Shown: positions 5,990 to 28,957, numbered from the stretch's first letter. The stretch: 64,000 nt of DNA from Bryobacterales bacterium (GCA_965263255.1 CBDHHA010000008.1:807006-871005); one strand, 5' to 3'. The notes: generated by a model not told the origin, from the letters alone. Numbers and translations are program-made.

Positions 5990-6007
5990 TGTACGCGGAT
6001 CCGCCGC

Positions 6008-6997
6008 TCAGGCCCGCCTCCAGTGGGAGACCGTGTCGATCTCCACCTGCTGGACGCGATTGGCGAGTGCTAGGTACTGCAGGTGGGATAGACACTCCGC
6101 CATCGCGAAGCGGCGTTGCAAGGGTTCTCGGGCAGATTCCCAGATCTCTCCGGAGATCGCGTAGGCATCCAGGGTGCGCTCGCCAAGGGCTTCCAGGATT
6201 GTCTCGCACCGTCGAACGTGGTGCTGGCGTGTTCCCTCGATCCATTCCCGGTGCCCCTCGAACGGCCGGCCATGCGAGGGTGCGATGAGGCCTGCGTCCA
6301 GCCCCTCGAGCTTGTCCAGGGTGCGCATGTAGTCCCCGAGGGGATCCTCCTGGTAGAACCAATGCATGCCGATGTTGGGCGTGATCTTTGGCAGGATCGC
6401 GTCGGTGGAGAACAGCACACGCTGTTCCGGGCAGCGGAAGCACAGCAGGGCGGGGGAGTGGCCGGGGGCTGCGATGGCTTCGAGCGTACCCCCGTCGAAC
6501 TCGAGACGCTCGCCCTCCTCGATTGCCCCGTCCACCACGAGGCGTTCGAAATGCCCGCGCCAAGCGCCGGTCCCGAGGCGCATCGCCTCGATATGGTCCA
6601 CCGGTACGCCATGGCACCCCAAGAAGGCCGCTGCATCGGCGAAGAATGCCCGTCCCGGTGCCAGTGGCTCGACAAGCTTGGCCTCGCGAGCCGGCATTCG
6701 CACGGGGGCGCCGCTCCGCCTGCGGATTTCCGCAGCCGCTCCGATGTGGTCGGGATGCAGGTGGCTGACCACGATCTCGCGGATTCCGGCCCAGCCGGAG
6801 CCCAGATGGCGCAGCGCCGCCTCGAGCGATTGGAGCGACTTCTCCTCCCGGAGGCCGGAGTCGAGCAGGAGGAAGCCGTCCCCGCGCCGGAACAGGAACA
6901 CGTTGACGCTGACCAAGTCCCAGGGCAGGGGAAGGCGGACCTGCCAGGCGCAGTCAGCTACAGGCCAGACCTTGGGCGTTGGCAAGCTAGAAGACAA
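6008..6997 (-). CDS. MBL-fold metallo-hydrolase
   Basis: SHLHPDHIG (HxHxDH), PGHSP, PSHG; C-terminal winged-helix-like segment. Confidence 0.88.
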   Translation of the reverse strand: MSSSLPTPKVWPVADCAWQVRLPLPWDLVSVNVFLFRRGDGFLLLDSGLREEKSLQSLEAALRHLGSGWAGIREIVVSHLHPDHIGAAAEIRRRSGAPVRMPAREAKLVEPLAPGRAFFADAAAFLGCHGVPVDHIEAMRLGTGAWRGHFERLVVDGAIEEGERLEFDGGTLEAIAAPGHSPALLCFRCPEQRVLFSTDAILPKITPNIGMHWFYQEDPLGDYMRTLDKLEGLDAGLIAPSHGRPFEGHREWIEGTRQHHVRRCETILEALGERTLDAYAISGEIWESAREPLQRRFAMAECLSHLQYLALANRVQQVEIDTVSHWRRA

Positions 6998-7077
6998 GGT
7001 CTCGGGAACACCAAAAGTGGCTAGCCGACGCCATTGATTCTAGCAGCCGCCGGTTTGCTCCCGGGCTGTTACGCTGA

Positions 7078-8214
7078 ATGCCATCGCCGGATCGCATGCG
7101 TTCGCCTGCCAAGCTGCTGCTGTACGGCCTGCTCGCGACCTCGGTGACGGCGGGCGCGGACGGCGATATCGGGTCGGAGCTGCGCTGCCGGGCAGTCAAG
7201 ATCAAGCCCAGTCTTGACTTCGAGTATCGGTTCGTCATGGGCTACTGGTTCAGCGTCCCGGTCCGGCAGTTCTGGGGAGGCCCGGTCGGCATGGACCTCG
7301 AGATCGAAGTCCACCCGGTCAATGGCACCCCGGGCAAGTCGAACTGGATGGACAACCGGCTTCAGGCCGACCAGGCCGTGCCGCAAGGCACCAGGGGTGA
7401 CCTGCATTTCAGTACCGGCGTGTCGGCTGGTCCGGGCGAGTATCGAATCGACTGGCGCATTCGCGACGACAGCGGGAGGTCCTGCGAGGGCTCCGACGAG
7501 TTCCGCGCCGCCCTGTCTCGCTCGGATCGCTCGGTCGCCCCGGCCCTGCAGCCCGGCGAGATCTTCGACACACGGATCTATCTGTTCCGCCCCGAGGAAG
7601 CCACTCCCAGGCCGTTCCTGCACTCCCCTCGTCGCCTCAAGGTCCTCGTGAGTCTGGACGTGCTGGGCCGCCGCGGGCGTCCCGTGCGTCCGAGGCTGAC
7701 CCACTGGCTGCCGCTGTTCGCCGCGCTGCGCCAGCTCGGGCGCAGTACGAGCTTCAACGAGTTCTCGGTCGTCGTGTTCAGCTTCGAGGACCGGAAAGTC
7801 CTGCTGAGGCACGATTACCGGGACGTGTTCGACTTCCCCTCGCTTCGCGGCGTGGTCGGCGGCTTGGAACCGGAAACCGTCGATGTGTCCGCGCTCATGC
7901 AGGGCAGCGAGATGCGATTCTTCGAGGAACTGCTGTCAGCCGAGCTGCTGGGGCCCGAAGCGCCGGACTCGGTGGTCTTCCTCGGACGGGAGATGAGCTT
8001 CGGCAAGCGCCTGCACGCGTCCTCGCTCGAGAGGTTCCGCAGGACCGGCGCTACGTTCGCGTTCTTCGATGCGTCCCGGTACGTCTGGAGGGGCGCAATC
8101 GGCAATGTAGTCCGGGCCATGGACGGAAAGGAATACAGGCTCGGTCGCCCCGCGGACCTCGCCAAGGCGCTGAAGGGCCTCGAGAAACAGGTGCTGCGTG
8201 CAAGGGCGCAATAG
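7078..8214 (+). CDS. hypothetical exported protein
   Basis: 378-aa ORF with protein-like composition and an N-terminal signal-like segment; no motif recognised. Confidence 0.7.
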   Translation: MPSPDRMRSPAKLLLYGLLATSVTAGADGDIGSELRCRAVKIKPSLDFEYRFVMGYWFSVPVRQFWGGPVGMDLEIEVHPVNGTPGKSNWMDNRLQADQAVPQGTRGDLHFSTGVSAGPGEYRIDWRIRDDSGRSCEGSDEFRAALSRSDRSVAPALQPGEIFDTRIYLFRPEEATPRPFLHSPRRLKVLVSLDVLGRRGRPVRPRLTHWLPLFAALRQLGRSTSFNEFSVVVFSFEDRKVLLRHDYRDVFDFPSLRGVVGGLEPETVDVSALMQGSEMRFFEELLSAELLGPEAPDSVVFLGREMSFGKRLHASSLERFRRTGATFAFFDASRYVWRGAIGNVVRAMDGKEYRLGRPADLAKALKGLEKQVLRARAQ

Positions 8215-8307
8215 GGTAATGCTGCGGGGTCGGCCGCTCGGGCCTGCCGCTACGGGCCCGGCAAGTCCGCTCCCGCCGCAGTTGACGCGGTTCCCGGAGG
8301 AGTCGAG

Positions 8308-11300
8308 ATGACCAGGCTCGGGCGGCGCGGGTTCCTAGGGAGCCTCGCAGCCGGCTCGGCATTCCGCCAGAGCCCTCTGACGTGGGCCGACGAGGTTCCG
8401 GCGCGGCTGGGCCAATGGATGCCGTGCAGCGACCTCCGGGCCTTGGTCGATCCCGCGAACGACGGCTTCCGCGCCGAACAGCAGGCGATGCAGGTTGAGA
8501 GCATCCTCTCGCGGTTGCTGGATGACGGGAGCCTGCCTCTTTCCTCGAACTTCGACGGTCCGTCGCCGATGCCCCGGGAATACGTCCGGGAAGGACCCGT
8601 TCGGCTCGCGCGGTACCCGAATCCGGGCGAGGGCTTTTCCGAGGGCATGCTCCGCTGGGTCCGCTCTCTCGATGACGTGCGCCGCGCGGAGTTTCATGCC
8701 TTGCCGGGCGATGTGGTCAGGTTCGAGATCGCGTCCGGCGCTCCGGCCGGCCTAGAGTACCGCGTCGGTCACTGGCGGATGAGGTGGGACGAAGGGCTCC
8801 TGGACCACTTCGAGCCGCTCGACGAGACTGTCGCGGCGGCGCCTGCACCGCTGTTTGCCGATGCGACGGCGGAGCTGTTCGGGGCGCTGCCGAGCTTCCG
8901 GGACCAGCTGTCCAAGGGCATCCCGTACTGGCGCTCCCGTCTGGACAGCGCCGCGGGCGTGGGCGTCTACGGCAACCAGGGCATCGCCGTGGGCGACATC
9001 GACGGCGATGGCTGGGACGAACTCTACGTCTGCCAGCCCAGCGGTCTCCCGAACCGCCTTTACAGCCGGCAGGAGAACGGAGCGTGGCTGGACGTGACGC
9101 CCGGATCCGGCGTGGACGTTCTTGATGACACCTCGCAGGCGCTGTTCCTTGACCTGCGGAACATCGGGCGCCAGGACCTTGTCGTGCTGACTACGGCGGG
9201 GCCCCTGCTGTTCCTCAATGACGGGTCCGGCCGATTCCGCCACCGCGACGACGCCTTCCACTTCAGGACGGACGCGCAGGGAACGTTCGCAGGCATGGCA
9301 GCGGCCGACTACGACCGCGACGGGAGAGTGGATCTCTACCTCTGCTCGTACCTGTACTTCCAGAGCCAGGACCAGTACCGCTACCCCGTGCCCTACCACG
9401 ACGCCCGGAACGGCCCGCCCAACTTCCTGTTCCGCAACGCGCTCGATGCCGACGGAGGCGGCCGGTTCGAGGATGTCACGGATGAGGCCGGACTGGGCCA
9501 GAACAACGACCGCTACAGCTTCGCTGCCGCCTGGTGCGACTACGACGAGGACGGCTGGCCCGAGCTCTATGTCGCGAACGACTTCGGGCGCAACAACCTG
9601 TACAAGTACCGGGACGGCCGCTTCCGGGACATCGCGGAGGAGGCGGGGGTCGCCGACGTCGGTCCCGGCATGAGCGCCGCGTGGTTCGACTTCGACGGTG
9701 ACGGGCGACTGGACCTGTACGTCACCAACATGTGGACCGCAGCCGGCCAGCGGGTTGCGAACGACCCGGCGTTCGGACCGTCAGGTGCCGGCGTGGCGAG
9801 CTCCGAGTATCGGGGCCACACCAAGGGGAACTCCCTATACCGCAACCGCGGGGACGGCACGTTCGACTACGCGGGCAGCGAGCAGGGTGTCGAGATGGGA
9901 CGCTGGTCCTGGGCGGGCGACGGATTCGACTTCGACCTCGACGGCGTGCCGGAGATCCTCGTCACGGCCGGGATGATCACGCATGATCCCGGCAAGGATC
10001 TCTGCAGCTTCTTCTGGAGGCAGGTGGTCTCCAATTCGCCCGCTGACGCGGCTCCGGCCCCTGCGTACGAGGAAGGCTGGAACTGCCTCAACCAGCTCGT
10101 CCGGGAGGACTACAGCTGGAACGGCGACGAGCCGAACGTCTTTCTCGCGCGACACGGTGGGAAGTACCGTGACCTTTCCGGAGTCTCGGGGCTGGACCGG
10201 GCACTGGACAGCCGGGCGTTCGCCGTGACGGACTTCGAAGGCGACGGCCGGCTGGATCTGTTCCTCAAGAGCCGGCTGGGTCCGCAAGTCCTCGCCTTCC
10301 GCAACCAGTCCACACGGGGCCGCGAGCCCTTGGTCCTGGAATTGGAAGGGACTCGGTCCAACCGCGACGCCATCGGCGCGATCGTTCGCGTCGAGACAGA
10401 GGAAGGCGTGTCGGCACAGGTGCTGTCCGGCGGGTCCGGCTATATCTCGCAGCACACGAAGCGGCTGCATTTCGGGCTGGGGTCGCGAGCGGCTGCCCGG
10501 CGGGTGACGATCTTGTGGCCCGCCTCCGGCCGGCAGCAATTCGAGGGCCTCGAGGCCGGGTTCCGCTACCGCATCCGCGAGGGCAACGGCCGCTTCACGC
10601 GGGTCCGCCTTGACGCCGGCCCCCAAACCCGCAGTCAGAGCGGGACGGTCTCGCCCGACAATCGGCTGGTCTTCGAGCCGACTTGGTTCCTCGATGCGGT
10701 GCCGCTGCCGCTGAGCGCCGAAGACGGATTCCTTGTCATAGCCGACGGGGAGGTGCCGGGCCTCCCGCCTGACGTGCCTCACAAGGTGATCGATCTCAGC
10801 CAGGGAACGGCTGACCAGGTCGCGGCCTTCTCCATCTTCCGGCGGTACCTGTTCGACTACCGGGCGGAGCTGAAACTGCCGCTGGTGCTGCTCGTGGGAC
10901 TGCAGGGAAGAGCACTCAGGGTATATCCGTCCGTTCCCGACGAAGCGGTGCTGCGTCGCGACCTAGGGGCGGTGCGCGGGCCGACCGATCTCGCGCGCCT
11001 GGCCTTGCCTTTCCCGGGCCGCTTCCACGGAGGGGCAGGAAGGCAGCACTTTCGCATGGGATTCGCCTTCATGAAGGCAGGATTCCCGAAGCTTGCTGTC
11101 CCCTACCTTCGCGAGGCCGCCTTGGGATCGCGCGACGGATTCAAGGCGTGGCTCGCATACGGCCAAGCCGAGCTGCAGATCGGCAACCTGCGGGAAGCGG
11201 AGCGGGCCCTTCGGATCGCGCAGGAGCGGAATGCGGAGTCGGCCGAGGTATGGAACAACCTCGGCGGCCTTGCCATGGCTCGCGACGACTACCGAGGTGC

Positions 11301-11793: not shown

Positions 11794-12095
11794 AGGGGTG
11801 ACCCGTTGGACTTCATGCGGCTCCGCAGCGCTGCCCCGCGCCCTCAGGAATCGAATTGCCTGCGGTATGCCGTATCATGCACTTGCAGGAGGTTTGCCAT
11901 CCACGACCCGCCTACACGCCGCCGGAATGCGCGCCTTCCCATTGCGTTGCCACCGAGAGCGGTCCCCTGCGACAGGTTTGGAACCGTCCACCTAGGGAGT
12001 ACCGTCGGACAAATGGATGGGCGAACGGTCATGGCAATTCGTTCCGATTCCATCCCGGCCACGGATCGCTCTGCCTGCCAGGAGACAAGCTCTCC

Positions 12096-12986
12096 ATGAG
12101 AGGTGACTCGTTCTCCAGTCGGAGGTTCTGTGCGTGGTCGTTCGGCTTGGCACTGCTGGGCCTGCACGCATGCGCGCCTGTCGAGGAGGCGCTGAAGTCC
12201 AAGACCTGGACAAACAGCGTGGGCATGGAGTTCGTCCGCGTGCCGGCTGGCGATTTCCGCATGGGATCGGACACCGAGACGGCGCATTTGAACGAGGGTC
12301 CGGTAACGGCGGTGAGAATCGACCGGGCGTTCTACATGGGCCGGTACGAGGTCACGCAGGGCCAGTGGGAGGCGGTCATGGGCAGCAACCCGTCGCGCTT
12401 CCGCCACTGCGGGACGGACTGCCCCGTCGAGTCTGTTTCCTGGCATGACATCAAGGAGTTCCTCGGAAAGCTCAACGAGGCCGAATCCGGCGGCGGATAC
12501 GAGTACCGGCTGCCGACTGAGGCCGAGTGGGAGTATGCGGCCCGGGGAGGGACTCAGTCTGACACCGTCCTTGGCGATCTGACCGTGCTTGGTCGGCGGA
12601 ATGCTCCATTGCTGGACACGATTGCATGGTACAGCGGCAACAGCGGCACCGACTATCAGGGAGCTGCGGACTGTTCGAGCTGGGACGAGTCCCAGAATGC
12701 CTACGAGCGGTGCGGGCCCCATCCGGTCGGGGGGAAAGCCGCCAACCCCTACGGGCTGCATGACATGCTAGGGAACGTTTGGGAGTGGGTGGAGGATCGC
12801 TACGCCGAGTATCCCGGCGGGAGCGTGCACGACCCTGTCGGGCCCGAGACCGGCCTGTACCGCGTGAGGCGGGGTGGAGCCTGGAACGGCGCTGCCGTCC
12901 AGTGCCGCGCTCCGTTTCGGATGGGATACCTGCCTGAGGAGCGGAAACGGAACCTTGGGTTCCGGATTTTGCGGACTGATGATTGA
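12096..12986 (+). CDS. FGE-sulfatase (SUMF1) domain protein, probable lipoprotein, likely non-catalytic
   Basis: NSVGMEFVRVPAGDFRMGS, YRLPTEAEWEYAARGG, GLHDMLGNVWEW, RGGAW, LGFR; lipobox-like LHAC. Confidence 0.88.
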   Translation: MRGDSFSSRRFCAWSFGLALLGLHACAPVEEALKSKTWTNSVGMEFVRVPAGDFRMGSDTETAHLNEGPVTAVRIDRAFYMGRYEVTQGQWEAVMGSNPSRFRHCGTDCPVESVSWHDIKEFLGKLNEAESGGGYEYRLPTEAEWEYAARGGTQSDTVLGDLTVLGRRNAPLLDTIAWYSGNSGTDYQGAADCSSWDESQNAYERCGPHPVGGKAANPYGLHDMLGNVWEWVEDRYAEYPGGSVHDPVGPETGLYRVRRGGAWNGAAVQCRAPFRMGYLPEERKRNLGFRILRTDD

Positions 12987-13135: not shown

Positions 13136-14833
13136 CTAGTTCCGGACAACGTCGACGTGCCAGGCACCAACCTTCCGCCCGTCAGTCTCCAGGGTGGCCT
13201 CGAAGGCGCCGTCGCCGGTCTGCAGGGTGATCCCTTCGAACCGGACCCGCTCGGCTCCCTCTTCCACTGGCAGTGTCTCCTCCGTCGTTCCGAAGGCGAT
13301 CCGCGCGGTACCCGCTTTCCGTGCGGCCCTCGCGAACGTGACGGTGATTGTGTACGGCCCCTGGGACGCTGACTGGACCAGCCAGCGACCGGCGACGGAT
13401 TGGTCGCGGCCCCATCCATCGGTCGTCATCATTCGCCAGTCCTGCCTCGTCAGCGTGACGTGCGGCTGGGCGTCGCTGCCAATCGCGAACCGGACAGCGT
13501 CGTAGCCTCGGGTCGACGATACGTCCTCCAGCCATGTGTCGTAGGCTGCTCGCAGGCGCTCCACCACCTCCGGATGCTCCCCGGATAGGTCGGTTTCCTC
13601 GCCTGGGTCCGCGAGAACGTCGTACAGTTCGATTGCGGCGTCCGGAGGGGCGGGCTCGCGGAAGCTCAAGGGCTGCACAAGCTTGAACCGCTGCTCGACC
13701 GCGGCGAATGCTCGGCGCGGCTGCGGCTCGTTCCCGCGATGCGCTTGGGTGAAGTAGGTCCGCGCTGGCAGCGCGTCAACCGCTCCTTCCCACAGCGGCA
13801 GCAGGTTGATTCCGTCGAATCGGACCGCGTCCGGCGCCGGCGCCCCCGTGGCTGCCAGGAGGGTGGGCGCGATATCGATGTGGGCCCCCATCTGGTCGGT
13901 TTCGCCAGGGGTCAGCCGGTCCGGCCACCGGACTAGGAACGGCACGCGGATCCCGCCCTCGTACACGGTCGCCTTCTGCGCCCGCAAGCCGGCGTGGTAG
14001 AGCCTCGTCGTGGGGCCGTTGTCGGTCATGAAGATGAAGACCGTGTTGGCGGCCAGCCCCTGCGACTCCAGATGGTCGAGGAGCTTGCCCACGTTGTCGT
14101 CGATGTTCGTGATCATTCCGTAGATCCGGGCGTCCTTGTCCGAGAGCCCTTGCTCTGCGTAGGGCAGGCGGTAGGAATCGGGAACCAGGTACGGCGAATG
14201 CGGTGCGTTGGTCGGAATGTACGCGAAGAACGGCTGCTCGCCGCCTTCCCCGATCCACCGGATCGCCTCGTCGAAGTACACGTCGGTGCAGTACCCGGAG
14301 TACTGCTGCTGCGAGCCGTTGTGGAATAGGACCGGGTCGAAGTAGTCCGAGCCGGGAGGGTCGGACGGCTGCCCGATCCCGCCGCCCTTGTGCACGACCG
14401 ATTCCTGGAACCCTTGATCGACCGTCCGTAACGGATAGTTGTCCCCGAGGTGCCACTTGCCGAAGATTCCGGTCCGGTATCCGGCCTCTCCGAGCATCTC
14501 GGCTATCGTGACCTCGGACGGGTCCATCATGGCGCGCCCCAGATAGGTGTCGACCACCCCGGTCCGATAGTTGTAGCGTCCCGTCATCAGGGCGGCCCGG
14601 GTCGGGGCGCATACCGGGGACACATAGAAGCGCGTCATCTCAACGCTCTCGCCCGCCAGCGCGTCCAGCCGAGGGGTCCTGAGGACAGGGTCGCCGTGGA
14701 ATCCGACCTGCGCCCAGCCCTGATCGTCGGTCATGATCAGGATCACGTTGGGCCTGCCGGCGGGAGTCTCGCCGGGGGTCCCGCACGTGGCGAGCAGGAC
14801 CGTCAGGATTGAGAGCGGAATAAGTCTCGGCAT
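13136..14833 (-). CDS. arylsulfatase (S1, Cys-type), lipoprotein
   Basis: PNVILIMTDDQG, CAPTRAALMTGR, GKWHLG, YEGGIRVP; lipobox LATC. Confidence 0.93.
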   Translation of the reverse strand: MPRLIPLSILTVLLATCGTPGETPAGRPNVILIMTDDQGWAQVGFHGDPVLRTPRLDALAGESVEMTRFYVSPVCAPTRAALMTGRYNYRTGVVDTYLGRAMMDPSEVTIAEMLGEAGYRTGIFGKWHLGDNYPLRTVDQGFQESVVHKGGGIGQPSDPPGSDYFDPVLFHNGSQQQYSGYCTDVYFDEAIRWIGEGGEQPFFAYIPTNAPHSPYLVPDSYRLPYAEQGLSDKDARIYGMITNIDDNVGKLLDHLESQGLAANTVFIFMTDNGPTTRLYHAGLRAQKATVYEGGIRVPFLVRWPDRLTPGETDQMGAHIDIAPTLLAATGAPAPDAVRFDGINLLPLWEGAVDALPARTYFTQAHRGNEPQPRRAFAAVEQRFKLVQPLSFREPAPPDAAIELYDVLADPGEETDLSGEHPEVVERLRAAYDTWLEDVSSTRGYDAVRFAIGSDAQPHVTLTRQDWRMMTTDGWGRDQSVAGRWLVQSASQGPYTITVTFARAARKAGTARIAFGTTEETLPVEEGAERVRFEGITLQTGDGAFEATLETDGRKVGAWHVDVVRN

Positions 14834-17417: not shown

Positions 17418-18635
17418 CTACCAGTTCGTTACCGACCCGTCCGGTCGCGCGAGCATTGGAATCGGTCGGGAGCGCTCGGTGACCTCCAGCACCAGGTCCG
17501 CTTGGCTCGCGTCGAACTCAACCCCCAGGCCGGCCCTTTCGTTCGGCCACAGCTTGCCGTTGCGGAAGTCGTAGTGGACGGGTAGGTGTGCATGGGTCTT
17601 GGCTCCAGGGCCAGTCATTTCCATCGTCACGGGCCCAGGCAGGGCCACGGCGCAGTGCACGAGCGCCGCTTCGGAGACCGGTCCTGTGAAGTGCGGGATC
17701 AGACCGATGTAGTGAGTCTCGCAGAGAGCGGCGAGCTTCATGAACTCGGTGATTCCCCCGCAGTTCGGAATTGTGACTCGCGAGTAGTCGAAGAGCCGGT
17801 TCTCGATCAGCACGTTGGCATCCCAGCGGTCGCCGTAGTGCTCGCCGACCGCGATCGGCACCTTCACCAAGGGCCTCAGCGTGCGGTAGACCTCGGGGTT
17901 CTCGGACCGCACGAGATCCTCGCAGAACATCGGCCGTAACGGCTCCAGCAGGGCGGACAGCCGAACCGCGTCAGGAAGGTCGAACCGGGTGTGGTAGTCG
18001 ATCGCCCAGTCGCCCTCTTCCCCGACTCCTTCCCGGATCTGCTTGCACATCTCGAACGTGTCGTCGACCGCCTTGCGGTGATGGTAGGGCCCCTCCAGCC
18101 CGGCTCCCGCCCCGCCGGTGCGGAATGCACGGAATCCTGCCTCGATGCAGGCGCGGGCGGTGTCCCGAAGCGACCCCTGATTGGGGAACCCAGTCGAGTA
18201 GCACTCGACGTACTCTCGCGTTAGGCCGCCGAGCAGCTGCCACACCGGCACGCCGAGCGCCTTGGCTTTGATGTCCCACAAGGCGAGGTCGATCGCCCCC
18301 AATGCGTGGATTTTCTCCCGGCCCGGCGGGTAGAAGTAGCCACGGTACATCACCTGCCAGAGGTGCTCGGTCCGGAATGGGTTCTCTCCGATGATCATCG
18401 CCCCGAGCTGCTCGACGGTGTCGCGGGAGCCGCCCTCGCCGATTCCAGTGATTCCGGCGTCCGTCTCGACCGTCACGATATGGCCGCTCTGGTTGAAGAT
18501 CGGGCGCGAGTCGGATACCCGGTAGTAGCGAACGCGCGTCACCTTGGCCGCCGGAAGCGCCGCGCGTGCGCGCGGCGCCGAGACCGCGACGGCCGGGCCG
18601 AGGATCGAAGATTGCAGCAGCTGGCGTCGATTCAT
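17418..18635 (-). CDS. mandelate racemase / galactonate dehydratase-like enolase superfamily enzyme with Tat signal
   Basis: MNRRQLL Tat-like; TDAGITGIGE, AIDLALWDIKAKALGVPVWQLLGG, metal ligands D(YHTR), E(DLV), GE. Confidence 0.88.
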   Translation of the reverse strand: MNRRQLLQSSILGPAVAVSAPRARAALPAAKVTRVRYYRVSDSRPIFNQSGHIVTVETDAGITGIGEGGSRDTVEQLGAMIIGENPFRTEHLWQVMYRGYFYPPGREKIHALGAIDLALWDIKAKALGVPVWQLLGGLTREYVECYSTGFPNQGSLRDTARACIEAGFRAFRTGGAGAGLEGPYHHRKAVDDTFEMCKQIREGVGEEGDWAIDYHTRFDLPDAVRLSALLEPLRPMFCEDLVRSENPEVYRTLRPLVKVPIAVGEHYGDRWDANVLIENRLFDYSRVTIPNCGGITEFMKLAALCETHYIGLIPHFTGPVSEAALVHCAVALPGPVTMEMTGPGAKTHAHLPVHYDFRNGKLWPNERAGLGVEFDASQADLVLEVTERSRPIPMLARPDGSVTNW

Positions 18636-18776
18636 GTTGCCCGGGATTATACGAGACCGGGCTGCCGGCTGGCCGCGGGTCTGCGGATTTCCGGGCTCGC
18701 GCATGTATTGCACGCTGGGACAGGGAGGTGGCCAGCGTGTGCAGGATTGGCCGGGAATCGCGCTATTCTGGCTGGC

Positions 18777-21179: not shown

Positions 21180-22169
21180 CTAGCGGTCAGCCCAGAGCGC
21201 AGTGATCTCGGGGCGCTTCTCGAGGAATTCCTCCGCGAGATCCGGGCCGAGGGCTATCAGTGCAGTGGCCGTCCCGTCCGCTTCCAACGCCGTCGGGGCG
21301 ATTACGCTGACGGCCCGCGCCGGGTCGGCGCAGCCGTCGCCCGAGCGGCTCAAGATGTGGGAGCAGGGCCGGTCGCCAAGCCGGAAGCGCCGTTCGCGGC
21401 TCCCCGATGTCGAGACGCCTTCGTTGCTGAGCAGGAGCTTCCGTTCCACCGAGCCGCGCGGTCCCAGCCGGTCGAGGCCAATGGGCCAGCCGGCAGCGTC
21501 GGGCGGAGGGTCGCCGACGGCGATGTCGCCAGCCACGGCAACCATCGCGCGGGGAACACCCCTCATCCGAACCTTGGCGAGGGCCTCGTCCGCAATGTAG
21601 CCCTTCGCGATGCCCCCTAGGTCCAGCTGCATGCCGCGGTGCGCAAGCGAGACCGTCCGTGTTTCCATGTCCAGGCTGATCCCTTCCCATCCGGTTCGGC
21701 TCCACGCCTCGCGCAACAGCTCCTCCTCGGGCCCGCCAAGCGGCCGGCTCTCGGCCCTGAGTAGCCTCGTCACGCTGCCTAGCGTCGGATCGAACGCTCC
21801 GCCGGAGTCGCGGGCCAGGCGCAGTGCTTGCTCCAGCAAGAAGGCGAATTCCGGTGAAACGGGGACTGGCTCGCGCCAGGCGGTCGTCTCAAGGAGCCTC
21901 AGCTCGGAGTCTTCCCGGTAGCTCGAGAACCTGGCGGCGAGAGACCCTATGCGGTCGAAAGCCTCCCGGAACGTTCGAGGCGGGCTGGCGTCCGGAGGGA
22001 AGTAGGCGGCGATGCGCACCACGATCCCCATGTGGGTCTCTTCGGCGACATGCAAGCGCAGCGGCTCGCCGTAGGCGTTCGGCTGGAGCGCCGCGAGGCC
22101 TGCGCAGGCGATCCAGAGGCACCAGAGGCCCGGCCTAGTCCCTCCCGGTCGCCGAGTTCCAATAGCCAT
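21180..22169 (-). CDS. apbE: FAD:protein FMN transferase
   Basis: HMG, FSSYREDSEL, GAFDPTLG, LDLGGIAKGY, GDI, STSG, SHI, ADGTATAL. Confidence 0.92.
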   Translation of the reverse strand: MAIGTRRPGGTRPGLWCLWIACAGLAALQPNAYGEPLRLHVAEETHMGIVVRIAAYFPPDASPPRTFREAFDRIGSLAARFSSYREDSELRLLETTAWREPVPVSPEFAFLLEQALRLARDSGGAFDPTLGSVTRLLRAESRPLGGPEEELLREAWSRTGWEGISLDMETRTVSLAHRGMQLDLGGIAKGYIADEALAKVRMRGVPRAMVAVAGDIAVGDPPPDAAGWPIGLDRLGPRGSVERKLLLSNEGVSTSGSRERRFRLGDRPCSHILSRSGDGCADPARAVSVIAPTALEADGTATALIALGPDLAEEFLEKRPEITALWADR

Positions 22170-23478
22170 ACATCTCTTCAGGGGATGGGACTCGAACCGG
22201 GCGGACCAGCCGGAATCCCAGCCATTGGGCATCGGTGTGATACCAGATGCTCTTTGGGAGCTGCGGATCCTGCATCTTCCACGAGTCGTCGGAGGCCCGG
22301 CGCGCTCCGCACCGCAGTGCGGGCGCGTCATCCATCCACGAGCCGCCGCGAGCTACGCGGGGGTAGAGGCTCTCGGCCCGTGCCCAAGGGTTGGCTGCGA
22401 CTTCCGCTACGTCCGCGTACGAGGGCTCGTACCGGTCCAGGGTCCACTCCCAGACGTTCCCGTGCATGTCGAACAGCCCCCAGGCATTGGCCTGCTTCGT
22501 TCCAACCCGCTGGTACTGGGCGTCGCTGTTCTCCCAGTACCAGCCATGGTCGGCCAGGGCCTCAGTCGTGTCGCCGAACGAATAGGCCGACACGCTGCCT
22601 GCCCGGCAGGCGTATTCCCATTCGGCCTCCGTCGGGAGGCGGTAGAAGCGGCCCGTCTTGGCACTGAGCCATTGCGCGTACTTGCTGGCGCCGTGCTGGG
22701 TCATGCTGATGGCCGGATAGCCCGTGATTCCCATGCCAAAGCTCATCTCCATGTAAGGCGGTGTCGGGCTCGAAACAGCCGCCACCAACCTGTCCGGATC
22801 CGTGTAGCCTTCTGCCTCCCTCAGCATGAAGCTCCGATAGGCGTCCCAGCTGGTCTCGTGTGCCGCCATCCAGAATCCGTCTACCTGGACCCGCCTTTGC
22901 GGTCCTTCGTCGTCGCTCCGGCCGGCCTCGCCGGCTGGAGTCCCCATCACGAACTCCCCCGCCGGTATCGGGACCATGCGCAAGGCGGCGTTGGTTCTGG
23001 GAACGGCTTCCTCGTACGCGTCGAAGCCCTGCTCTTCCTCGGAGCGCTTGGCAATCCTGCGATGGATCTGGCGGACGACGTCCATTTCCTCGCTGTCGCG
23101 AGCTTCGGGCGAAGGTCTGGGTGCAATTCCGAGAGGGCCGCTCCATTCCGCACCGTCCAGTATCCAGGCACGCACGCTGGCGATTTCCGACTCGGTGGGC
23201 TGCGGACCGCCCGGAGGCATCGATCCGGGCGAGTCGGCAGGCAGTTCCATCCTGGCCAGCAGCGGGCTCGAGCCTGGCTTGCCCGGCAGGACCGACGGAC
23301 CGCTCGCTCCGCCCGACCGGGCAGCCTCCTCCGTTTCGAGGCTGAGCCCGCCGAGCTTGTTGGCATCCAGATGGCAGGACAGGCAGCGCGCCTCGAGGAA
23401 CGGGCGGATGTCCGCGTCGAAGTCCACCGCGCTCGCGACAGGAGCCACGGCTAGCGCTAACAGTAGCGGCGCGCGCAC
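22135..23478 (-). CDS. planctomycete-type cytochrome c domain + FGE-sulfatase (SUMF1-like) domain protein
   Basis: Signal peptide; VDFDADIRPFLEARCLSCH (CxxCH)...MPP...WILDGA; YRLPTEAEWEYACRAG, DMHGNVWEW, RGGSW, LGFRLVRP. Confidence 0.9.
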   Translation of the reverse strand: MRAPLLLALAVAPVASAVDFDADIRPFLEARCLSCHLDANKLGGLSLETEEAARSGGASGPSVLPGKPGSSPLLARMELPADSPGSMPPGGPQPTESEIASVRAWILDGAEWSGPLGIAPRPSPEARDSEEMDVVRQIHRRIAKRSEEEQGFDAYEEAVPRTNAALRMVPIPAGEFVMGTPAGEAGRSDDEGPQRRVQVDGFWMAAHETSWDAYRSFMLREAEGYTDPDRLVAAVSSPTPPYMEMSFGMGITGYPAISMTQHGASKYAQWLSAKTGRFYRLPTEAEWEYACRAGSVSAYSFGDTTEALADHGWYWENSDAQYQRVGTKQANAWGLFDMHGNVWEWTLDRYEPSYADVAEVAANPWARAESLYPRVARGGSWMDDAPALRCGARRASDDSWKMQDPQLPKSIWYHTDAQWLGFRLVRPVRVPSPEEMYGYWNSATGRD

Positions 23479-23480
23479 GG

Positions 23481-24761
23481 TCAGACGAACTCGGTCCGGC
23501 CCGGCCGCGCCAATGGCGGGACGTCCAGGGCCATGTCCCAGCGCAGGTCGTCGGGGAATCTCTTCTCCCGAGACTGCATGGCCTGGTCCCATGTCAGTTC
23601 CTGGCCCGTATACGCCGCCATTCTTCCGAGTATCGCAAGCAAGGTGCTGTGCGCCATCCGCACTCCGTCGTTGACGGGTTCCGAGCGCCGAATCGCTCGG
23701 AACAGCACGTCGTGCTCCACCTGGTACATGTTCTGCTGCTGCCCGCGGAAGACCCAGGGGCTCTCGCCCTCGATTCGGGGCATCAGGCCCCGGCCGATCG
23801 TCAGCTTTCCCTTGGTTCCGAGGATGTAGTCCGCGTTCTCGCGGTGGCAGCCGCTAATCTGGCGGCACGCCATGAAGGCCCGCACGCCGCCCGGGTACAG
23901 GTAGTTGACCTCGAAGTGATCAAAGATGTTGCCGTCGTGGGCCGGGATCTGGCGACCGCCCACCGCGACGCAGCTCTCGGGCGGCTTGTCGCCAAGGGCC
24001 CAGGCGATCTTGTCCACGCTGTGGACGGCCTGTTCCACGAGGCCGTCGCCGCAGGTCCAGACGAAGTTGTACCAGTTGCGGATCTGCCACTCGACATCGC
24101 TCATCCCAAGAGGACGCTCGTAGGCTGGCGGCATCGGCTTGACAGGATTCGTGTAGAAGGTCGCGTAGTAGGCGACGATGTCGCCGATCGCACCGGAATG
24201 GACCTGTTCCATCGCGGCTTGAATCATGTTGTTGTACCGCCAGCAGAATCCCGCGACGAGCGACAGGTCCTTGGTCTCCGCTATCCGCACGGTCTCCAGG
24301 ACGGACCGCACTCCCGGCGCGTCGACCGCCATCGGCTTCTCGCAGAAGACGTGCTTTCCGGCCTCGACGCAAGCCCTCAGGTGCGAAGGGCGGAATCCCG
24401 GAGGCGTCGCCAGCAAGACAACGTCCACGCCGCTGTCGATGACGGACTGGAACGCGTCCAGGCCCAGGTACTGGTCCCGCTTGCGGACGCGGACTTTCTT
24501 CTTGCCTTCATGGCGCTTCTCGACCTCCGCCAGGCACCGGTCGATCCGCTCCTGGTCCACGTCCGCAACCGCTGTTAGGACCGCGTAGTCGTCCGCCTGG
24601 AGTGCTTGAGCCGCGGCGCCCGTACCTCGGCCGCCGCAGCCGACGAGACCAACCTTGATCTCCTGGCCGACCTCGGCTGCTCGCAGGAAGGCGGCTGTTC
24701 CCGCTGACGCGGCGGCCCCGTGCAGGAATCGCCGTCGCGACGGATTCTGGGTAGCGGGCAT
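23481..24761 (-). CDS. Gfo/Idh/MocA family oxidoreductase, Tat-exported
   Basis: SRRRFL Tat motif; KVGLVGCGGRGTGAA; KHVFCEKPMAVD; EQAVHSVD. Confidence 0.93.
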   Translation of the reverse strand: MPATQNPSRRRFLHGAAASAGTAAFLRAAEVGQEIKVGLVGCGGRGTGAAAQALQADDYAVLTAVADVDQERIDRCLAEVEKRHEGKKKVRVRKRDQYLGLDAFQSVIDSGVDVVLLATPPGFRPSHLRACVEAGKHVFCEKPMAVDAPGVRSVLETVRIAETKDLSLVAGFCWRYNNMIQAAMEQVHSGAIGDIVAYYATFYTNPVKPMPPAYERPLGMSDVEWQIRNWYNFVWTCGDGLVEQAVHSVDKIAWALGDKPPESCVAVGGRQIPAHDGNIFDHFEVNYLYPGGVRAFMACRQISGCHRENADYILGTKGKLTIGRGLMPRIEGESPWVFRGQQQNMYQVEHDVLFRAIRRSEPVNDGVRMAHSTLLAILGRMAAYTGQELTWDQAMQSREKRFPDDLRWDMALDVPPLARPGRTEFV

Positions 24762-25007
24762 CTCGCCCCTCGGTGGTGTCATCGTCTTGCATTGTCGCCG
24801 ATACCGCACGCTCGTTGCTCCCATCGATGACCCACGTCCCGGTACCCATGCTTACGAGTGCCGGCCTGTACCCCAGCCGCGACCGAATTCGTCCAATCAG
24901 TTGCAATCGCAGCAGGCCTGCGCCTTGCTAGGACGTGGCGTTCTCGCCACGGGGCGGGCTTGGGTGCAAGCGAAGGAAAGGCGGACTCGACGGGCTCCAT
25001 GACTCCC

Positions 25008-25979
25008 ATGCCGAGACTGGGCGTTGGCAGGCTGCGGACCACTTTGGGATTCGCCGGCCGTCGGCCAGCGATCCTCGGGGGCCTCATGGCGGCACTGATC
25101 ATGTTCTGGTCCGGGCCCTTGCTTGCGGAGCCGTCCGGAAACGGGGAGCCGGGGCCCGATGAAGGCGAGGCCGGCTTGCAGCTCTTCGACGTCGTCCTGC
25201 TGGACAGCCGGGACGGCTTCGCCATCGAGCCGGACGCCAAGTTCCTGCCCGGCGAGCGAGTCCACCTTTACCTTCAGGTCTCGGGGTACAGCATCGGTCG
25301 CGAGGACCGCGTCCGATTGACGCATGAGTTGCGGGCCCTCGATCCTAGCGGCCGGGCCTTCTACCCTCCCGAGCGCGGGGGATACGACACCGAGCTCGCG
25401 CCTCAGGACGAGAACTGGAAGCCCGTCGTGAGGTACTCCCCGCTAATCCCGGAGCACGCTTTCGGCGGGACCTTCGCGATTCGCGTGAAGGTGACCGACG
25501 AGCTGGCTGGTGCGTCCGTCAGCGAGGAAGTGTCGTTCGAGGTCAACGCTCCGCGGATCGACCCGGATCAGGGTCTGCTGGTCCGCGGCTTCCGATTCCG
25601 GCACCACCCAAGCGATCCGTACGCATGGGAATCCCCCGACGACCCGGCCGGCGGCGCCCCGGAGCATTCGATCGCCCGCCCCGGAGAGCAGATCTCAGCA
25701 TCGTTCTTCATCACTGGCTACGAGGTCCGGGACGACAACACCTTCGACGTCGAGTCGCAGGCCTGGCTCTTGGATTCCGAGGGCCGGAAACTCGTCGACT
25801 TCGGTGTCACGAGGGAGTCCGGAAGGCCCTACTATCCGCGCTTGTGGCTGCCCGGCAGCATCCGGATACAGCTCGATCCGGAGATTGCCCCCGGCGACTA
25901 TCCGGTCAGGATCCGGGTTCGGGACCGAATCGCGGGCACGGAGAAGGTACACGAGGCACCTCTCCAGGTCCGCCCCTGA
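25008..25979 (+). CDS. hypothetical exported protein with two tandem Ig-like domains
   Basis: Internal duplication: PGERVHLYLQVSGY...GTFAIRVKVTDELAG vs PGEQISASFFITGY...GDYPVRIRVRDRIAG. Start uncertain. Confidence 0.7.
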   Translation: MPRLGVGRLRTTLGFAGRRPAILGGLMAALIMFWSGPLLAEPSGNGEPGPDEGEAGLQLFDVVLLDSRDGFAIEPDAKFLPGERVHLYLQVSGYSIGREDRVRLTHELRALDPSGRAFYPPERGGYDTELAPQDENWKPVVRYSPLIPEHAFGGTFAIRVKVTDELAGASVSEEVSFEVNAPRIDPDQGLLVRGFRFRHHPSDPYAWESPDDPAGGAPEHSIARPGEQISASFFITGYEVRDDNTFDVESQAWLLDSEGRKLVDFGVTRESGRPYYPRLWLPGSIRIQLDPEIAPGDYPVRIRVRDRIAGTEKVHEAPLQVRP

Positions 25980-26611: not shown

Positions 26612-28957
26612 GTGACTTCCAGGATCTCCCCGGCTGCCGCGTTTGCGCTTCTTCCCTTGGCCGTGCTGCCGACGGTCTCGCACGCGCAGGGCGTGTCCGA
26701 AATTGAGGAGGGAAGGAAAGCCTTCGAGGTCCACTGCGCAAGCTGTCACGGGGGTGACGGCAGGGGCGGGGAATACGCTCCCGACATCGTGACACCGGGC
26801 GTGGCCCTGGCGCGCTCGGACGACGAGTTGCGCGAAATAATCCGCAACGGACTGCCGGACCGCGGAATGCCCGGCATTGCCGTTGAGGAACCGGCACTGA
26901 CCCGGATCGCGGCCTATTACGGGTCGCTGACCCGTCCCGCTGCGACGAGCTCCGTCGCCGGCGATCCCATCCGCGGGGAGGAGCTGTTCGCCGGCCTGGG
27001 CTGCGCCGGCTGCCACGTGCACGGGCCGCAGAGCCGGGTCGCCGGGCCGGATCTGGCGAGGGTAGGTGCCGAGCGGACGCTGGAGCAGATCCGCCGTTCG
27101 GTGCTGGACCCCGACTCCCTGATCGCCGACGGCTACGGCGTGGTCGAAGTCCGGCGGGCCGACGGCACCAAGGTCCGCGGCTTCGCAAGGAACCGCAGCA
27201 GTCTCGACTTGCAATTGCAGACCTTCGACGGCCGGTTCGAGTTCATCGGATCGGACGGCTGGCTCAGCGTGACCGACCATCCCGGATCCCTGATGCCCCG
27301 GCTCGATCTTTCCGACGAGGATTTTTCCGACCTGCTTGCGTTTCTCGGTCGGCAGGACGGTTCGGGCTCGCTGGCGACGCACGGGCGGCGGCAGTTCCAG
27401 GGGGGCGATGCCGCATTCGACCGCATCCTCCGACCCAGGCCCGGCGAGTGGCCGACCTACAACGGAAGGCTGGACGGCAACCGGCATAGCCAGCTCGACC
27501 AGATTCACCACGGCAGCGTCGCGAGCCTCGAAGTTGCGTGGATGTATCCGATGGAGTCTCCGAACCTGCTCGAGACCACGCCGGTCGTCGTCGATGGCGT
27601 CATGTACGTGACATTCGCCAACGAGGTCCATGCCCTCGACGCGCTACACGGCCGCCGGATCTGGACCTACAGCGAGCCCCGCACTCCGGGGATTCTCGGA
27701 GCCGCGGCCCGGGCGGCGAACCGGGGGGTCGCCCTGCTCGGCAACCGGGTCTTCGTCGTAACCGACCATGCCCACCTTCTCGCGCTCGACCGCCTAACCG
27801 GGCGCAAGGTCTGGGACGTCGAGATGGCCGACTACCGCCAGAACTACAATGCCACCGCCGCCCCGCTCGTGATCCGGGACCTCGTGATATCCGGGGTCTC
27901 CGGCGGCGATCAGGGCGTGCGCGGGTTCCTCGCGGCCTACGACGCCGCTTCGGGCGAGGAACGCTGGCGCTTCTGGACCGTCCCGCTGCCGGGCGAGGCG
28001 CTGTCGGAGACGTGGAAGGGATCCGTCCTGCCGCACGGATGCGCCACCACTTGGCTCACCGGCACGTACGATGCCGGCCTCGACCTGCTCTACTGGCCGA
28101 CCGGCAATCCGTGCCCCGACATGAACGGAGACGAGCGCCTGGGCGACAACCTGTACTCGAACAGCGTGCTCGCCCTCCGGCCGGGCACCGGGGAACTGGT
28201 CTGGCACTTCCAGTACACCCCGCACGACGAGCATGACTGGGACGCTGTCCAGACTCCCGTCCTAGCCGACATGGATTGGAACGGCGAGCCGCGGAATCTG
28301 CTCATCCATGCCAATCGGAACGGATTCTTCTATGTGCTGGACCGCGTCGACGGGCAGCTGCTGCTGGCCGAGCCCTTCATCCGCAAGCTGACCTGGGCGG
28401 AGCGCATCGGGTCCGACGGCAGGCCGGTGCTTGTCCCCGGCACGCGGCCCACGCCGGGCGGCAACCTTGTGTGCCCGGGCTTGCAGGGGGCGACGAACTG
28501 GCCCGCCAAGTCCTTCGATCCGGCCTCGGGGCTGTTCTTCACGCTGGCGTCGGAATTCTGCCACGTCTTTACCAAGCGCAGCGAGACCTGGGAGGCCGGC
28601 AAGCCCTTCTACGGCGGCACCGCCAGGGAGCCGGTCGGCGAGCCGGGAGAGCGTTACCTGCGGGCGATTGACGTGTCGACCGGCAGGATCGCCTGGGAGC
28701 GGAAGCTCGGGGACTCGGTCCGCGCCAACTGGTCGGGGGTGCTGTCCACCGCCGGAGGCCTCGTCTTCTTCGCCGACAACCAAGGCACCTTCCATGCCGC
28801 CCGCATCGCCGACGGCCGGCTGCTCTGGAGCCGCCATCTCAACGCACGGGTCCGGGCGTCGCCGATGACCTACACGGCCGGAGGGCGCCAGTTCGTCGCC
28901 GTTGCCGCCGGGACCAGCGTCGTGTCATTCGCCGCGCGCGACAGCGGCGCCCGTTGA
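26612..28957 (+). CDS. PQQ-binding beta-propeller dehydrogenase fused to two N-terminal cytochrome c domains
   Basis: CASCH and CAGCH heme motifs; WPTYNG, ETTPVVVDGVMY, NRGVA, YWPTGNP, TPHDEHDWDAVQ, RNGFFYVLDR, GATNW. Confidence 0.9.
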   Translation: MTSRISPAAAFALLPLAVLPTVSHAQGVSEIEEGRKAFEVHCASCHGGDGRGGEYAPDIVTPGVALARSDDELREIIRNGLPDRGMPGIAVEEPALTRIAAYYGSLTRPAATSSVAGDPIRGEELFAGLGCAGCHVHGPQSRVAGPDLARVGAERTLEQIRRSVLDPDSLIADGYGVVEVRRADGTKVRGFARNRSSLDLQLQTFDGRFEFIGSDGWLSVTDHPGSLMPRLDLSDEDFSDLLAFLGRQDGSGSLATHGRRQFQGGDAAFDRILRPRPGEWPTYNGRLDGNRHSQLDQIHHGSVASLEVAWMYPMESPNLLETTPVVVDGVMYVTFANEVHALDALHGRRIWTYSEPRTPGILGAAARAANRGVALLGNRVFVVTDHAHLLALDRLTGRKVWDVEMADYRQNYNATAAPLVIRDLVISGVSGGDQGVRGFLAAYDAASGEERWRFWTVPLPGEALSETWKGSVLPHGCATTWLTGTYDAGLDLLYWPTGNPCPDMNGDERLGDNLYSNSVLALRPGTGELVWHFQYTPHDEHDWDAVQTPVLADMDWNGEPRNLLIHANRNGFFYVLDRVDGQLLLAEPFIRKLTWAERIGSDGRPVLVPGTRPTPGGNLVCPGLQGATNWPAKSFDPASGLFFTLASEFCHVFTKRSETWEAGKPFYGGTAREPVGEPGERYLRAIDVSTGRIAWERKLGDSVRANWSGVLSTAGGLVFFADNQGTFHAARIADGRLLWSRHLNARVRASPMTYTAGGRQFVAVAAGTSVVSFAARDSGAR

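Follow-up and report, generated by a model that had tools for sequence, protein, structure and literature searches.

An ApbE-linked, PvdO-like FGE-fold protein as a candidate redox partner of a putatively Tat-exported Gfo/Idh/MocA oxidoreductase in Bryobacterales

A cluster of three genes that may form an extracytoplasmic, flavin-based redox module lies in a 64,000-nucleotide stretch of a Bryobacterales genome (GCA_965263255.1, CBDHHA010000008.1:807006-871005), referred to below as the window. The genome is 5.49 Mb in size and 95.7% complete, and its nearest relatives are Bryobacterales within the Acidobacteriota. The genes encode a Gfo/Idh/MocA-family oxidoreductase (Gfo), a protein joining a c-type heme domain to a domain with the fold of the formylglycine-generating enzyme (FGE), and a homologue of ApbE, which transfers flavin mononucleotide (FMN) from flavin adenine dinucleotide (FAD) to proteins (Table 1). 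The original prediction, made from the sequence of the window, described three tightly packed genes on the minus strand, and coordinates and Pfam matches agree with this. The Gfo frame starts with an ATG at 24761, with GAGGGG upstream and other in-frame starts possible at 24782 and 24824, and its product begins MPATQNPSRRRFLHG. The GTG start of the second gene lies 2 nt past the Gfo TGA (23483-23481), and the apbE ATG at 22169 gives a 35-nt overlap with the end of the second gene (TAG, 22137-22135). Export signals were predicted for all three products, and a candidate is visible in each: a twin-arginine leader with an RRxFL motif in Gfo (SRRRFLHGAAASAGTAAFL), although its Pfam TAT_signal match stays below the cut-off (16.4 against 22.7 bits), and, as read off the translations, probable signals in the second protein (a hydrophobic N-terminus ending ASA) and in ApbE (an N-terminus with LWIAC).

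Table 1. Positions of the genes and features of the cluster, and of the displaced apbE of a close relative
Feature	Description	Position	Strand	Basis
Gene 1	Gfo/Idh/MocA-family NAD(P)-type oxidoreductase, twin-arginine leader SRRRFLHG	23481..24761	minus	open reading frame, Pfam
Gene 2	heme c and FGE-fold (PvdO-like) protein with export signal, 447 aa	22135..23478	minus	Pfam, AlphaFold, Foldseek
Gene 3	ApbE-family FAD:protein FMN transferase homologue of a clade adjoining FGE-like genes	21180..22169	minus	PF02424
Gene 2, residues 1-19	predicted Sec-type signal peptide, ending A-S-A-V-D	23422..23478	minus	translation
Gene 2, residues 32-89	PSCyt1 c-type heme domain; CLSCH heme motif at 23371-23385	23212..23385	minus	PF07635
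Gene 2, residues 167-447	FGE-fold domain, distinct subfamily	22138..22980	minus	PF03781, alignments
Gene 2, D404-P-Q-L-P-K-S410	loop inside the subfamily-specific insertion	22249..22269	minus	speculative candidate modification site
Relocated apbE stretch of G256	neighbour is an IS605 OrfB/TnpB-type gene	L120 (G256:C2:644000-657000), 6004-7404 and 7813-8955		

The second protein is matched in Pfam by PSCyt1 (43.7 bits against a cut-off of 22) and by FGE-sulfatase (E 1e-42). The CxxCH heme attachment motif of the PSCyt1 domain is CLSCH (residues 32-36), and both this motif and RGGSWMDDAPALRC were found as the original prediction had quoted them. An AlphaFold model from 52 homologues has a mean predicted local distance difference test score (pLDDT) of 85.5; its best Foldseek match is PvdO (5hha, E 2.5e-18, template modelling score 0.79 on the target), followed by copper FGEs, with human and bacterial FGEs at E ~1e-16. 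PvdO is also the best NCBIfam match (NF051459, 'dihydropyoverdine dehydrogenase'), at 121.8 bits against a cut-off of 500. The fold and the core motifs RLPTEAEWE and RGGS are common to FGE/SUMF1 and the window protein, whereas the copper-binding cysteine pair is missing from the latter, as had been claimed: its first position is D383, an Asp in 63/63 subfamily rows of one alignment and Cys in 9/10 classical rows, and its second is L388. The PvdO of Pseudomonas is likewise a periplasmic FGE fold without the catalytic cysteines. The window protein differs from it in that the two share 27% identity, the NCBIfam match stops at residue 397, ahead of a subfamily-specific insertion, and in place of a pyoverdine setting it has a fused heme c, with Gfo and ApbE as neighbours.

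The subfamily to which the window protein belongs (FGE-like below) is strongly conserved, at 40-78% identity. Its invariant residues include Y242, S246-F-G-M-G, M259-T-Q, C291, Y322, K328 and S396; among the Ser and Thr of the full alignment, S410 and T415 are invariant and S246, T260, S272, T275 and S396 reach at least 90%. The insertion W400-W412 (W400-K-x-x-D-P-Q-[LI]-P-K-S-x-W) is absent from classical FGEs. Within it the D404-S410 loop is near-invariant, with D404 and S410 invariant, and it coincides with the only part of the model that has a pLDDT below 50 (model residues 384-391, protein residues 403-410). Across loci the FGE-like protein is N-terminally fused to 0, 1 or 2 PSCyt1 heme c domains, and this variable fusion, as read from the sequences, marks the domain as a putative redox partner. 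The genome of the window holds one copy of the subfamily beside several classical FGE-type genes. Source databases call FGE-like proteins formylglycine-generating, 'nonheme iron' or SUMF1/EgtB/PvdO family enzymes; as applied here, the first two of these labels are probably mistaken.

Gfo matches three Pfam families above their cut-offs (PF01408, 57 bits, E 3.9e-15; PF22725, 37.2 bits; PF02894, 30.6 bits) and shows a GCGGRG Rossmann motif and an EKP motif. In an alignment of 32 rows (A2), E110-K111-P112 is invariant, and no Ser or Thr is invariant or near-invariant. The protein is distantly like inositol, xylose, levoglucosan and glycoside 3-dehydrogenases, glucose-fructose oxidoreductase (GFOR) and aldose-aldose oxidoreductase, and its NCBIfam and PDB relatives are all distant (best PDB relative, E 3.5e-12). 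It matches no characterised specificity among the inositol, xylose, levoglucosan and glycoside 3-dehydrogenases, the best NCBIfam equivalog reaching 64.6 against 355. Nearby genes of the window, namely a Tat-signal galactonate/mannonate-dehydratase-family gene, an aldose-epimerase-like gene and a polyphosphate glucokinase gene, hint at periplasmic sugar oxidation, in a synteny confined to close relatives. Sugar or glycoside oxidation, as originally proposed, may thus be the role of the enzyme, on the basis of distant family likeness and of synteny kept only in close relatives.

Periplasmic Gfo-type enzymes of Zymomonas and Caulobacter hold NADP tightly and regenerate it by means of a second substrate, and are not known to require a partner. 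The window Gfo belongs to the same family as these enzymes, the Zymomonas glucose-fructose oxidoreductase and the Caulobacter aldose-aldose oxidoreductase (PDB 1h6a, 5a02), at distant similarity (E ~1e-6 to 1e-7), and its putative twin-arginine leader would imply export with bound cofactor, as in their case. Unlike in those enzymes, the conserved partner gene beside it suggests an external acceptor.

The third gene matches PF02424 over the whole profile (positions 1-266 of 266, E 4.2e-57), and its product aligns end to end with proven FMN transferases, FmnB (7esa, E 1.3e-32) and Treponema pallidum Ftp (4xdt/4ifu). LDLGGIAKGY, STSG, SHIL and EADGTATA are present, which cover the family's GGIAKG and TSG motifs, the His of H-I-[IL] and the C-terminal A-D-x-x-[ST]-A, and the usual D-P after the His is S-R. 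K189, G190, S255, G256 and H271 are conserved in 36 rows of the clade described below and in 26 other ApbE rows, and the clade departs at N94, P235 and G138 from residues that are fixed in the other clades. The general base of ApbE is given as His257 of the Vibrio enzyme in sections of a review (PMC12052999). The window ApbE keeps the FMN-transferase core, and transferase function is predicted for it.

Conservation of the linkage was assessed with a one-genome-per-species scan using the FGE-like protein. It returned 80 loci, which were sorted by local tblastn with the three window proteins into 65 of the FGE-like subfamily, 12 of classical-type FGE and 3 with a heme-domain match only. ApbE lies within 3 kb in 32 of the 65 subfamily loci, Gfo in 38, both in 26 and neither in 21; for the 41 loci with at least 4 kb on both sides, the counts are 22, 26, 20 and 13. 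The full trio occurs in many Bryobacterales, in other Acidobacteriota and in three Bacteroidota loci, pairs of FGE-like gene and apbE in Verrucomicrobiota, and pairs of FGE-like gene and Gfo in Planctomycetota and Verrucomicrobiota. Co-conservation across phyla, on which the original prediction had been made to depend, was therefore found, the trio or its pairs recurring in four of them. Gene order is Gfo, FGE-like, ApbE in Bryobacterales, whereas in the three Bacteroidota loci the FGE-like gene comes first and is followed by Gfo and by an apbE of opposite strand; in some Acidobacteriota and in Opitutia, apbE is divergent from the FGE-like gene. When 2858 open frames of the 33 ApbE-linked loci were clustered all against all, these three families emerged with their shadow frames, and no fourth conserved family did; beyond close relatives all synteny except the three-gene core is lost.

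That the adjacency is a chance or lineage-specific accident without common function has a practically negligible probability. The wider synteny (ROK kinase, aldose-epimerase-like, enolase-family dehydratase and a 373-aa open reading frame) is confined to close relatives, as an accident would have it, but the three-gene core outlasts it, in altered gene orders and in three phyla, and with 1-5 apbE genes per 4-9 Mb genome we estimate the expectation of one within 3 kb at well under 1%. The three-gene association is not due to chance.

Within this association the FGE-like gene occupies the hub position: ApbE stays with it where Gfo is lacking, and Gfo stays with it where ApbE is lacking. ApbE and FGE-like gene stand without Gfo in the Verrucomicrobiota loci L046 and L071, which are contig-complete, and also in L026 and L054, with little flank on one side; in L046 a pair of leaderless, more distant Gfo genes lies 4 kb downstream. 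Gfo and FGE-like gene stand without ApbE in 12 loci, several with little flank, including L009 and Planctomycetota (among them the cultured Aeoliella straminimaris). Two apparent fusions of these partners did not stand up: an 877-aa protein with Pfam matches to Gfo, PSCyt1 and FGE (P0004) was rejected as a frameshifted read-through of two neighbouring genes, its sequence being of low complexity after ENADYILG, at the point of the expected Gfo continuation, and an 873-aa open frame across both genes in L009 was rejected with a frame differing from that of the Gfo match. The FGE-like domain has a second context in Verrucomicrobiota, where a ~400-aa N-terminal region of FG-GAP/VCBS type replaces the heme (L029, L034, L036-L044, L049, L056) and neither Gfo nor ApbE lies near these fused members.

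Classical FGEs behave differently. None of the 12 classical loci has ApbE or Gfo nearby (0 each), and a sulfatase gene accompanies 7 of them as against 9 of the 65 subfamily loci, sulfatase genes being seldom nearby in the subfamily. These counts bear on a reading in which the cluster serves an alternative sulfatase maturation, the FGE-like domain binding the signature peptide and Gfo dehydrogenating its Ser (or Cys) to formylglycine in the periplasm. The FGE fold is kept, including the RLPTEAEWE core, Pirellulaceae have sulfatase-ApbE fusion proteins, and a sulfatase gene flanks the L046 cluster; however, the sulfatase frequencies run the other way, a classical FGE-sulfatase pair is already present in the window, 8 kb from the cluster, the fusions carry a TGAS-type motif and a canonical HI[IV]DPxTG of their own and look like a separate system, and heme and ApbE would have no role. 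We consider this reading very improbable.

An independent sample of 251 Acidobacteriota genomes, among them three unpublished ones that enter the tallies only (G024, G049, G152), agreed with the scan and held the FGE-like subfamily in 16, always as a single copy. Leaving the window's own genome aside, 14 of the 15 holders have a Gfo homologue no more than 1.5 kb away, and in the remaining one (G069) no match reached E 1e-40. An apbE gene is present within 3 kb in 5 of these 15 genomes and at a distance of 18.5 kb in one more. ApbE is present in all 16 holders as against 154 of the 251 genomes overall, a suggestive link among genomes that are related to one another.

The ApbE sequences adjoining FGE-like genes form a clade of their own. 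The tree has 62 rows (28 FGE-adjacent sequences of the window and the scanned loci, the 3 further paralogues in the genome of the window, and 31 of the 39 matches from the 15 sampled genomes, 8 partial matches being left out), six of them of deviant composition, and comes from a quick IQ-TREE search, with a careful search unfinished. The 33 ApbEs that adjoin an FGE-like gene, which stem from Acidobacteriota, Verrucomicrobiota and Bacteroidota, all fall in one group with a support of 100 in the Shimodaira-Hasegawa-like approximate likelihood ratio test (SH-aLRT), which also takes in 3 unlinked sequences (G146, G086, G230); nqr-type ApbEs and a third clade fall outside it. An ApbE of this dedicated clade is present in 8 of the 15 sampled genomes. 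In the close relative G256 the cluster lacks apbE, and an ApbE of 61% identity is encoded at another place in the genome, with an IS605-type transposase gene as its neighbour (Table 1), which suggests that the gene was moved by a mobile element.

The genome of the window has four ApbE paralogues, of which two end nqrA-F operons and one overlaps rbfA. Two FMN_bind genes were found in it, both in the nqr operons, outside the window and beside nqr-type apbE, in line with the original statement that no FMN_bind, Nqr or Rnf substrate gene was recognised in the window; no DUF2271 or DUF3570 was found in this genome, the DUF3570 search having matched in no control genome. Since the two nqr operons carry their own apbE, the canonical substrates have their own enzymes. 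A side observation is that two near-identical nqrC...apbE stretches with the same spacing occur in G000 (contigs C7:3634-7463 and C8:2586994-2590823), which may reflect either a genuine second copy of the nqr operon or redundancy in the assembly.

No FMN_bind, DUF2271, DUF3570 or NqrB/RnfD match was found by Pfam in the cluster itself. The hub pattern makes the FGE-like protein, rather than Gfo, fit as the ApbE client, and with its Ser/Thr conservation it is the only consistent candidate. A metagenome-assembled genome (MAG) of Opitutia (G254, 2.2 Mb) has a single ApbE, the divergent neighbour of a two-heme FGE-like gene, and no match to FMN_bind, NqrB/RnfD, DUF2271 or DUF3570 (the last of these searches again matching in no control genome). 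Approximately 4% of genomes stay 'orphan apbE', with unidentified substrates, according to parts of a survey (Meheust et al. 2021, PMC8238504). The dedicated ApbE clade and this 'orphan apbE' MAG strengthen the case for the FGE-like protein as client. The earlier claim that the FGE-fold protein is the flavinylated partner is thus partly supported, by co-conservation, hub position and ApbE clade, and opposed by the absence of the canonical motif from the FGE-like protein, Gfo and every conserved neighbouring frame.

The Tat pathway exports folded, cofactor-loaded proteins, c-type cytochromes leave unfolded via Sec, and NAD(P)H cannot reduce heme directly, a flavin being the usual converter between two-electron and one-electron steps. 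Against this background we tentatively favour, at just short of an even chance, a mechanism in which Gfo pairs with the FGE-like subunit, the latter is loaded with FMN by the dedicated ApbE at a non-canonical site, and electrons pass from NAD(P)H through FMN to heme c. Gfo would leave the cytoplasm through Tat in folded form, presumably with NAD(P) already in place, and would oxidise a sugar-like or polyol substrate. Its partner, an FGE-fold protein that lost the FGE copper site, would be brought out by Sec, would carry no cytoplasmic cofactor, and would receive FMN from the dedicated ApbE in the periplasm. Attachment would most likely be covalent, through a Ser or Thr at a non-canonical site, with S410 in the DPQ[LI]PKS loop or S396 as candidates. 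The flavin would take up the hydride of NAD(P)H with its two electrons and release them one at a time, and the electrons would go to the fused c-type heme here, or to a separate acceptor in the heme-less relatives, and on to the respiratory chain.

Modelling of the Gfo/FGE pair, which the original prediction had proposed, gave Gfo and the FGE-like domain a score of 0.56 (runs 0.56, 0.56 and 0.61; best of 3 controls 0.01), with the runs agreeing in at least 87% of contacts and a partner pLDDT of at least 88. The mark for a prediction is reached by 58/80 solved complexes and 2/110 mismatched pairs, and at 0.60 or below by only 7/80 solved complexes plus both mismatches that passed; the calibration holds roughly, as the prediction ran on our own alignments. 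We read the score as mild, weak support for a complex because Gfo/FGE-like adjacency is near-obligate.

Several findings weigh against the proposed electron route. The canonical flavinylation motif, D-x-x-[S/T]-G-A-[S/T] as stated in portions of a review (PMC12052999), is absent from the FGE-like protein, Gfo and ApbE. No conserved [ST]GA[ST] was found in six frames within 4.5 kb of the FGE-like gene (32 ApbE-linked loci and the window): eleven ApbE-linked loci lack the tetrapeptide wholly, matches elsewhere are scattered and mostly in shadow frames, and the only strict motif match in the window lies in the frame opposite the ROK gene. As the canonical motif is missing, FMN loading would need an unprecedented recognition site. 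The complex score falls in the range in which passing is 'more often wrong than right unless the guess was likely beforehand'. Members of the subfamily do not always have the heme domain, CxxCH being present in 27/65 subfamily open reading frames and absent in 38/65, and a separate cytochrome gene, looked for in the heme-less loci, was mostly missing within 4 kb, most heme-less trio loci holding no other CxxCH open reading frame over that distance. The ApbE tree comes from the quick search only and includes a row (L057) with an internal stop set to X, and G254 is a 2.2-Mb MAG whose completeness is not established.

The missing motif also counts for a reading in which ApbE flavinylates Gfo or a canonical substrate elsewhere and owes its place in the operon solely to being co-regulated with a respiratory module, a reading that we regard as distinctly unlikely. 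It could draw on the two FMN_bind genes in the nqr operons of the window's genome and on weak FMN_bind matches in large open reading frames of the G255 genome. The nqr operons, however, have their own ApbE paralogues of a different clade; the Gfo alignment is without an invariant Ser or Thr, Gfo is missing from several loci that have ApbE and the FGE-like gene, and no known substrate family was found in G254.

Further points against the favoured mechanism concern the fold and its distribution. We know of no flavin-binding member of the FGE fold, and the structures nearest to the model by Foldseek are PvdO and copper FGEs. Neither partner lies nearby in 21/65 subfamily loci (13/41 of the well-flanked ones), mostly Verrucomicrobiota FG-GAP fusions; ApbE is not adjacent in 10/15 sampled Acidobacteriota genomes, and in 7/15 genomes with the Gfo/FGE-like pair (families f70 and f24) no dedicated-clade ApbE was found among the 31/39 matches fetched. 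The main rival builds on the same observations. It takes the FGE-like protein for a PvdO-like catalytic subunit that helps to oxidise a small molecule in the periplasm, or for a recognition subunit that binds the substrate of Gfo, with ApbE employed elsewhere, for example in the hydrolysis of FAD to free FMN or on another carrier, and we rate it as rather unlikely. PvdO being the best NCBIfam and structural match, the want of a flavinylation motif, the 7/15 sampled genomes holding the Gfo/FGE-like pair without a linked or clade-specific ApbE and the lack of both partners in FG-GAP-fused members all fit it, and T. pallidum ApbE/Ftp is reportedly an FAD pyrophosphatase. However, it leaves unexplained both the separate ApbE clade that tracks the FGE-like gene across three phyla and the presence of ApbE beside that gene when Gfo is absent; the PvdO model match is far below its cut-off, at 121.8 bits against 500; and the window ApbE has a Tyr where the T. 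pallidum N55Y variant (4xdt) departs from the wild type (4ifu), which we take to be the transferase-type state.

If the FGE-like protein is flavinylated, as the favoured mechanism has it, the site is non-canonical. Our guess at a leading candidate is S410, an invariant residue that is specific to the subfamily and belongs to a flexible loop; it lies six residues after the invariant D404, the spacing of the canonical motif. S396 is a second, speculative candidate. More broadly, the PvdO-like FGE-fold domain may represent a type of ApbE client so far unrecognised, one that reoxidises the NAD(P)-bound Gfo exported by Tat and hands electrons on to heme c, loaded at a non-canonical site, perhaps S410; we put this forward as a possibility, with more doubt than confidence.

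Known ApbE-dependent extracytosolic systems (NqrC/RnfG, Listeria FmnB-PplA, DUF2271, DUF3570), as presented in the main parts of two surveys (Meheust et al. 2021, PMC8238504; Huang et al. 2024, PMC11334425), likewise set an exported ApbE beside an exported redox module, which is often interchangeable with or joined to cytochromes, and the ApbE core is kept here too. The window cluster differs in having no FMN_bind, DUF2271, DUF3570 or [ST]GA[ST], in the FGE-fold client candidate and in the putatively Tat-exported Gfo partner. Quinohemoprotein alcohol dehydrogenases and flavocytochrome sugar dehydrogenases have, as is proposed here, a heme c fused to or beside a periplasmic dehydrogenase as first acceptor; they differ in that the primary cofactor here would be NAD(P), with the FGE-fold domain as the only candidate carrier between two-electron and one-electron steps. 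The main text of both surveys makes no mention of FGE, sulfatase or Gfo, and their supplementary cluster tables may list the cluster. No published description of an ApbE/FGE-like/Gfo linkage was found in full-text searches. What is new here is a candidate client fold, and a candidate partner enzyme, for an ApbE-associated extracytoplasmic redox module.

Other genes of the window and of related genomes were noted in passing. A gene at 17418-18713 (minus strand) encodes an enolase-superfamily protein of the galactonate/mannonate dehydratase family. Its leader (NRRQLLQSS...) resembles a twin-arginine signal and so hints at a sugar-acid dehydratase located in the periplasm, which is unusual for the family. 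At 26612-28957 (plus strand) lies a gene for a 781-aa protein in which two c-type heme domains are fused to a propeller like that of pyrroloquinoline quinone (PQQ) dehydrogenases; its best NCBIfam match is TIGR04528, 'acido-empty-quinoprotein group A', at 511 bits against a cut-off of 650. A classical FGE-type gene (11856-12986, plus strand) beside an arylsulfatase-like gene (13136-14833, minus strand) makes an ordinary FGE-sulfatase pair and an internal contrast. Divergent from Gfo, a 373-aa open reading frame (24858-25979, plus strand) has no Pfam or NCBIfam match, apparently contains two internal repeats that each end R-V-x-D-x-[LI]-A-G, and occurs in 8 close relatives only; its DELAGAS-like stretch led us to consider it as an ApbE client, which was rejected, the stretch being kept in 2 of these relatives.

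Elsewhere, proteins P0122-P0124, Pirellulaceae among them, combine a sulfatase domain of unusual C-A-E-T-R signature, a middle region with TGAS/SGTS and a C-terminal ApbE, and P0125 and P0126 are NamZ-ApbE-beta-lactamase fusions of Planctomycetota. Both sets were rejected as a related system on account of their own TGAS/SGTS stretch, and they may be self-contained flavinylation modules.

Recognition of ApbE substrates has until now relied on a single short motif and a few domains, and a conserved apbE clade without a canonical substrate nearby points to a second mode of recognition and a new flavin-carrying fold. The NAD(P) of periplasmic Gfo/Idh/MocA enzymes cannot exchange with the cytoplasmic pool; apart from recycling by a second substrate, we know of no acceptor system for it, and none was found in literature searches on periplasmic MocA proteins with cytochrome c. 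The module spans abundant soil and aquatic phyla, namely Acidobacteriota, Verrucomicrobiota, Planctomycetota and Bacteroidota. If the proposed mechanism is true, it would account for some of the genomes still classed as 'orphan apbE' and would reveal the way in which widespread periplasmic NAD(P) enzymes are coupled to respiration.

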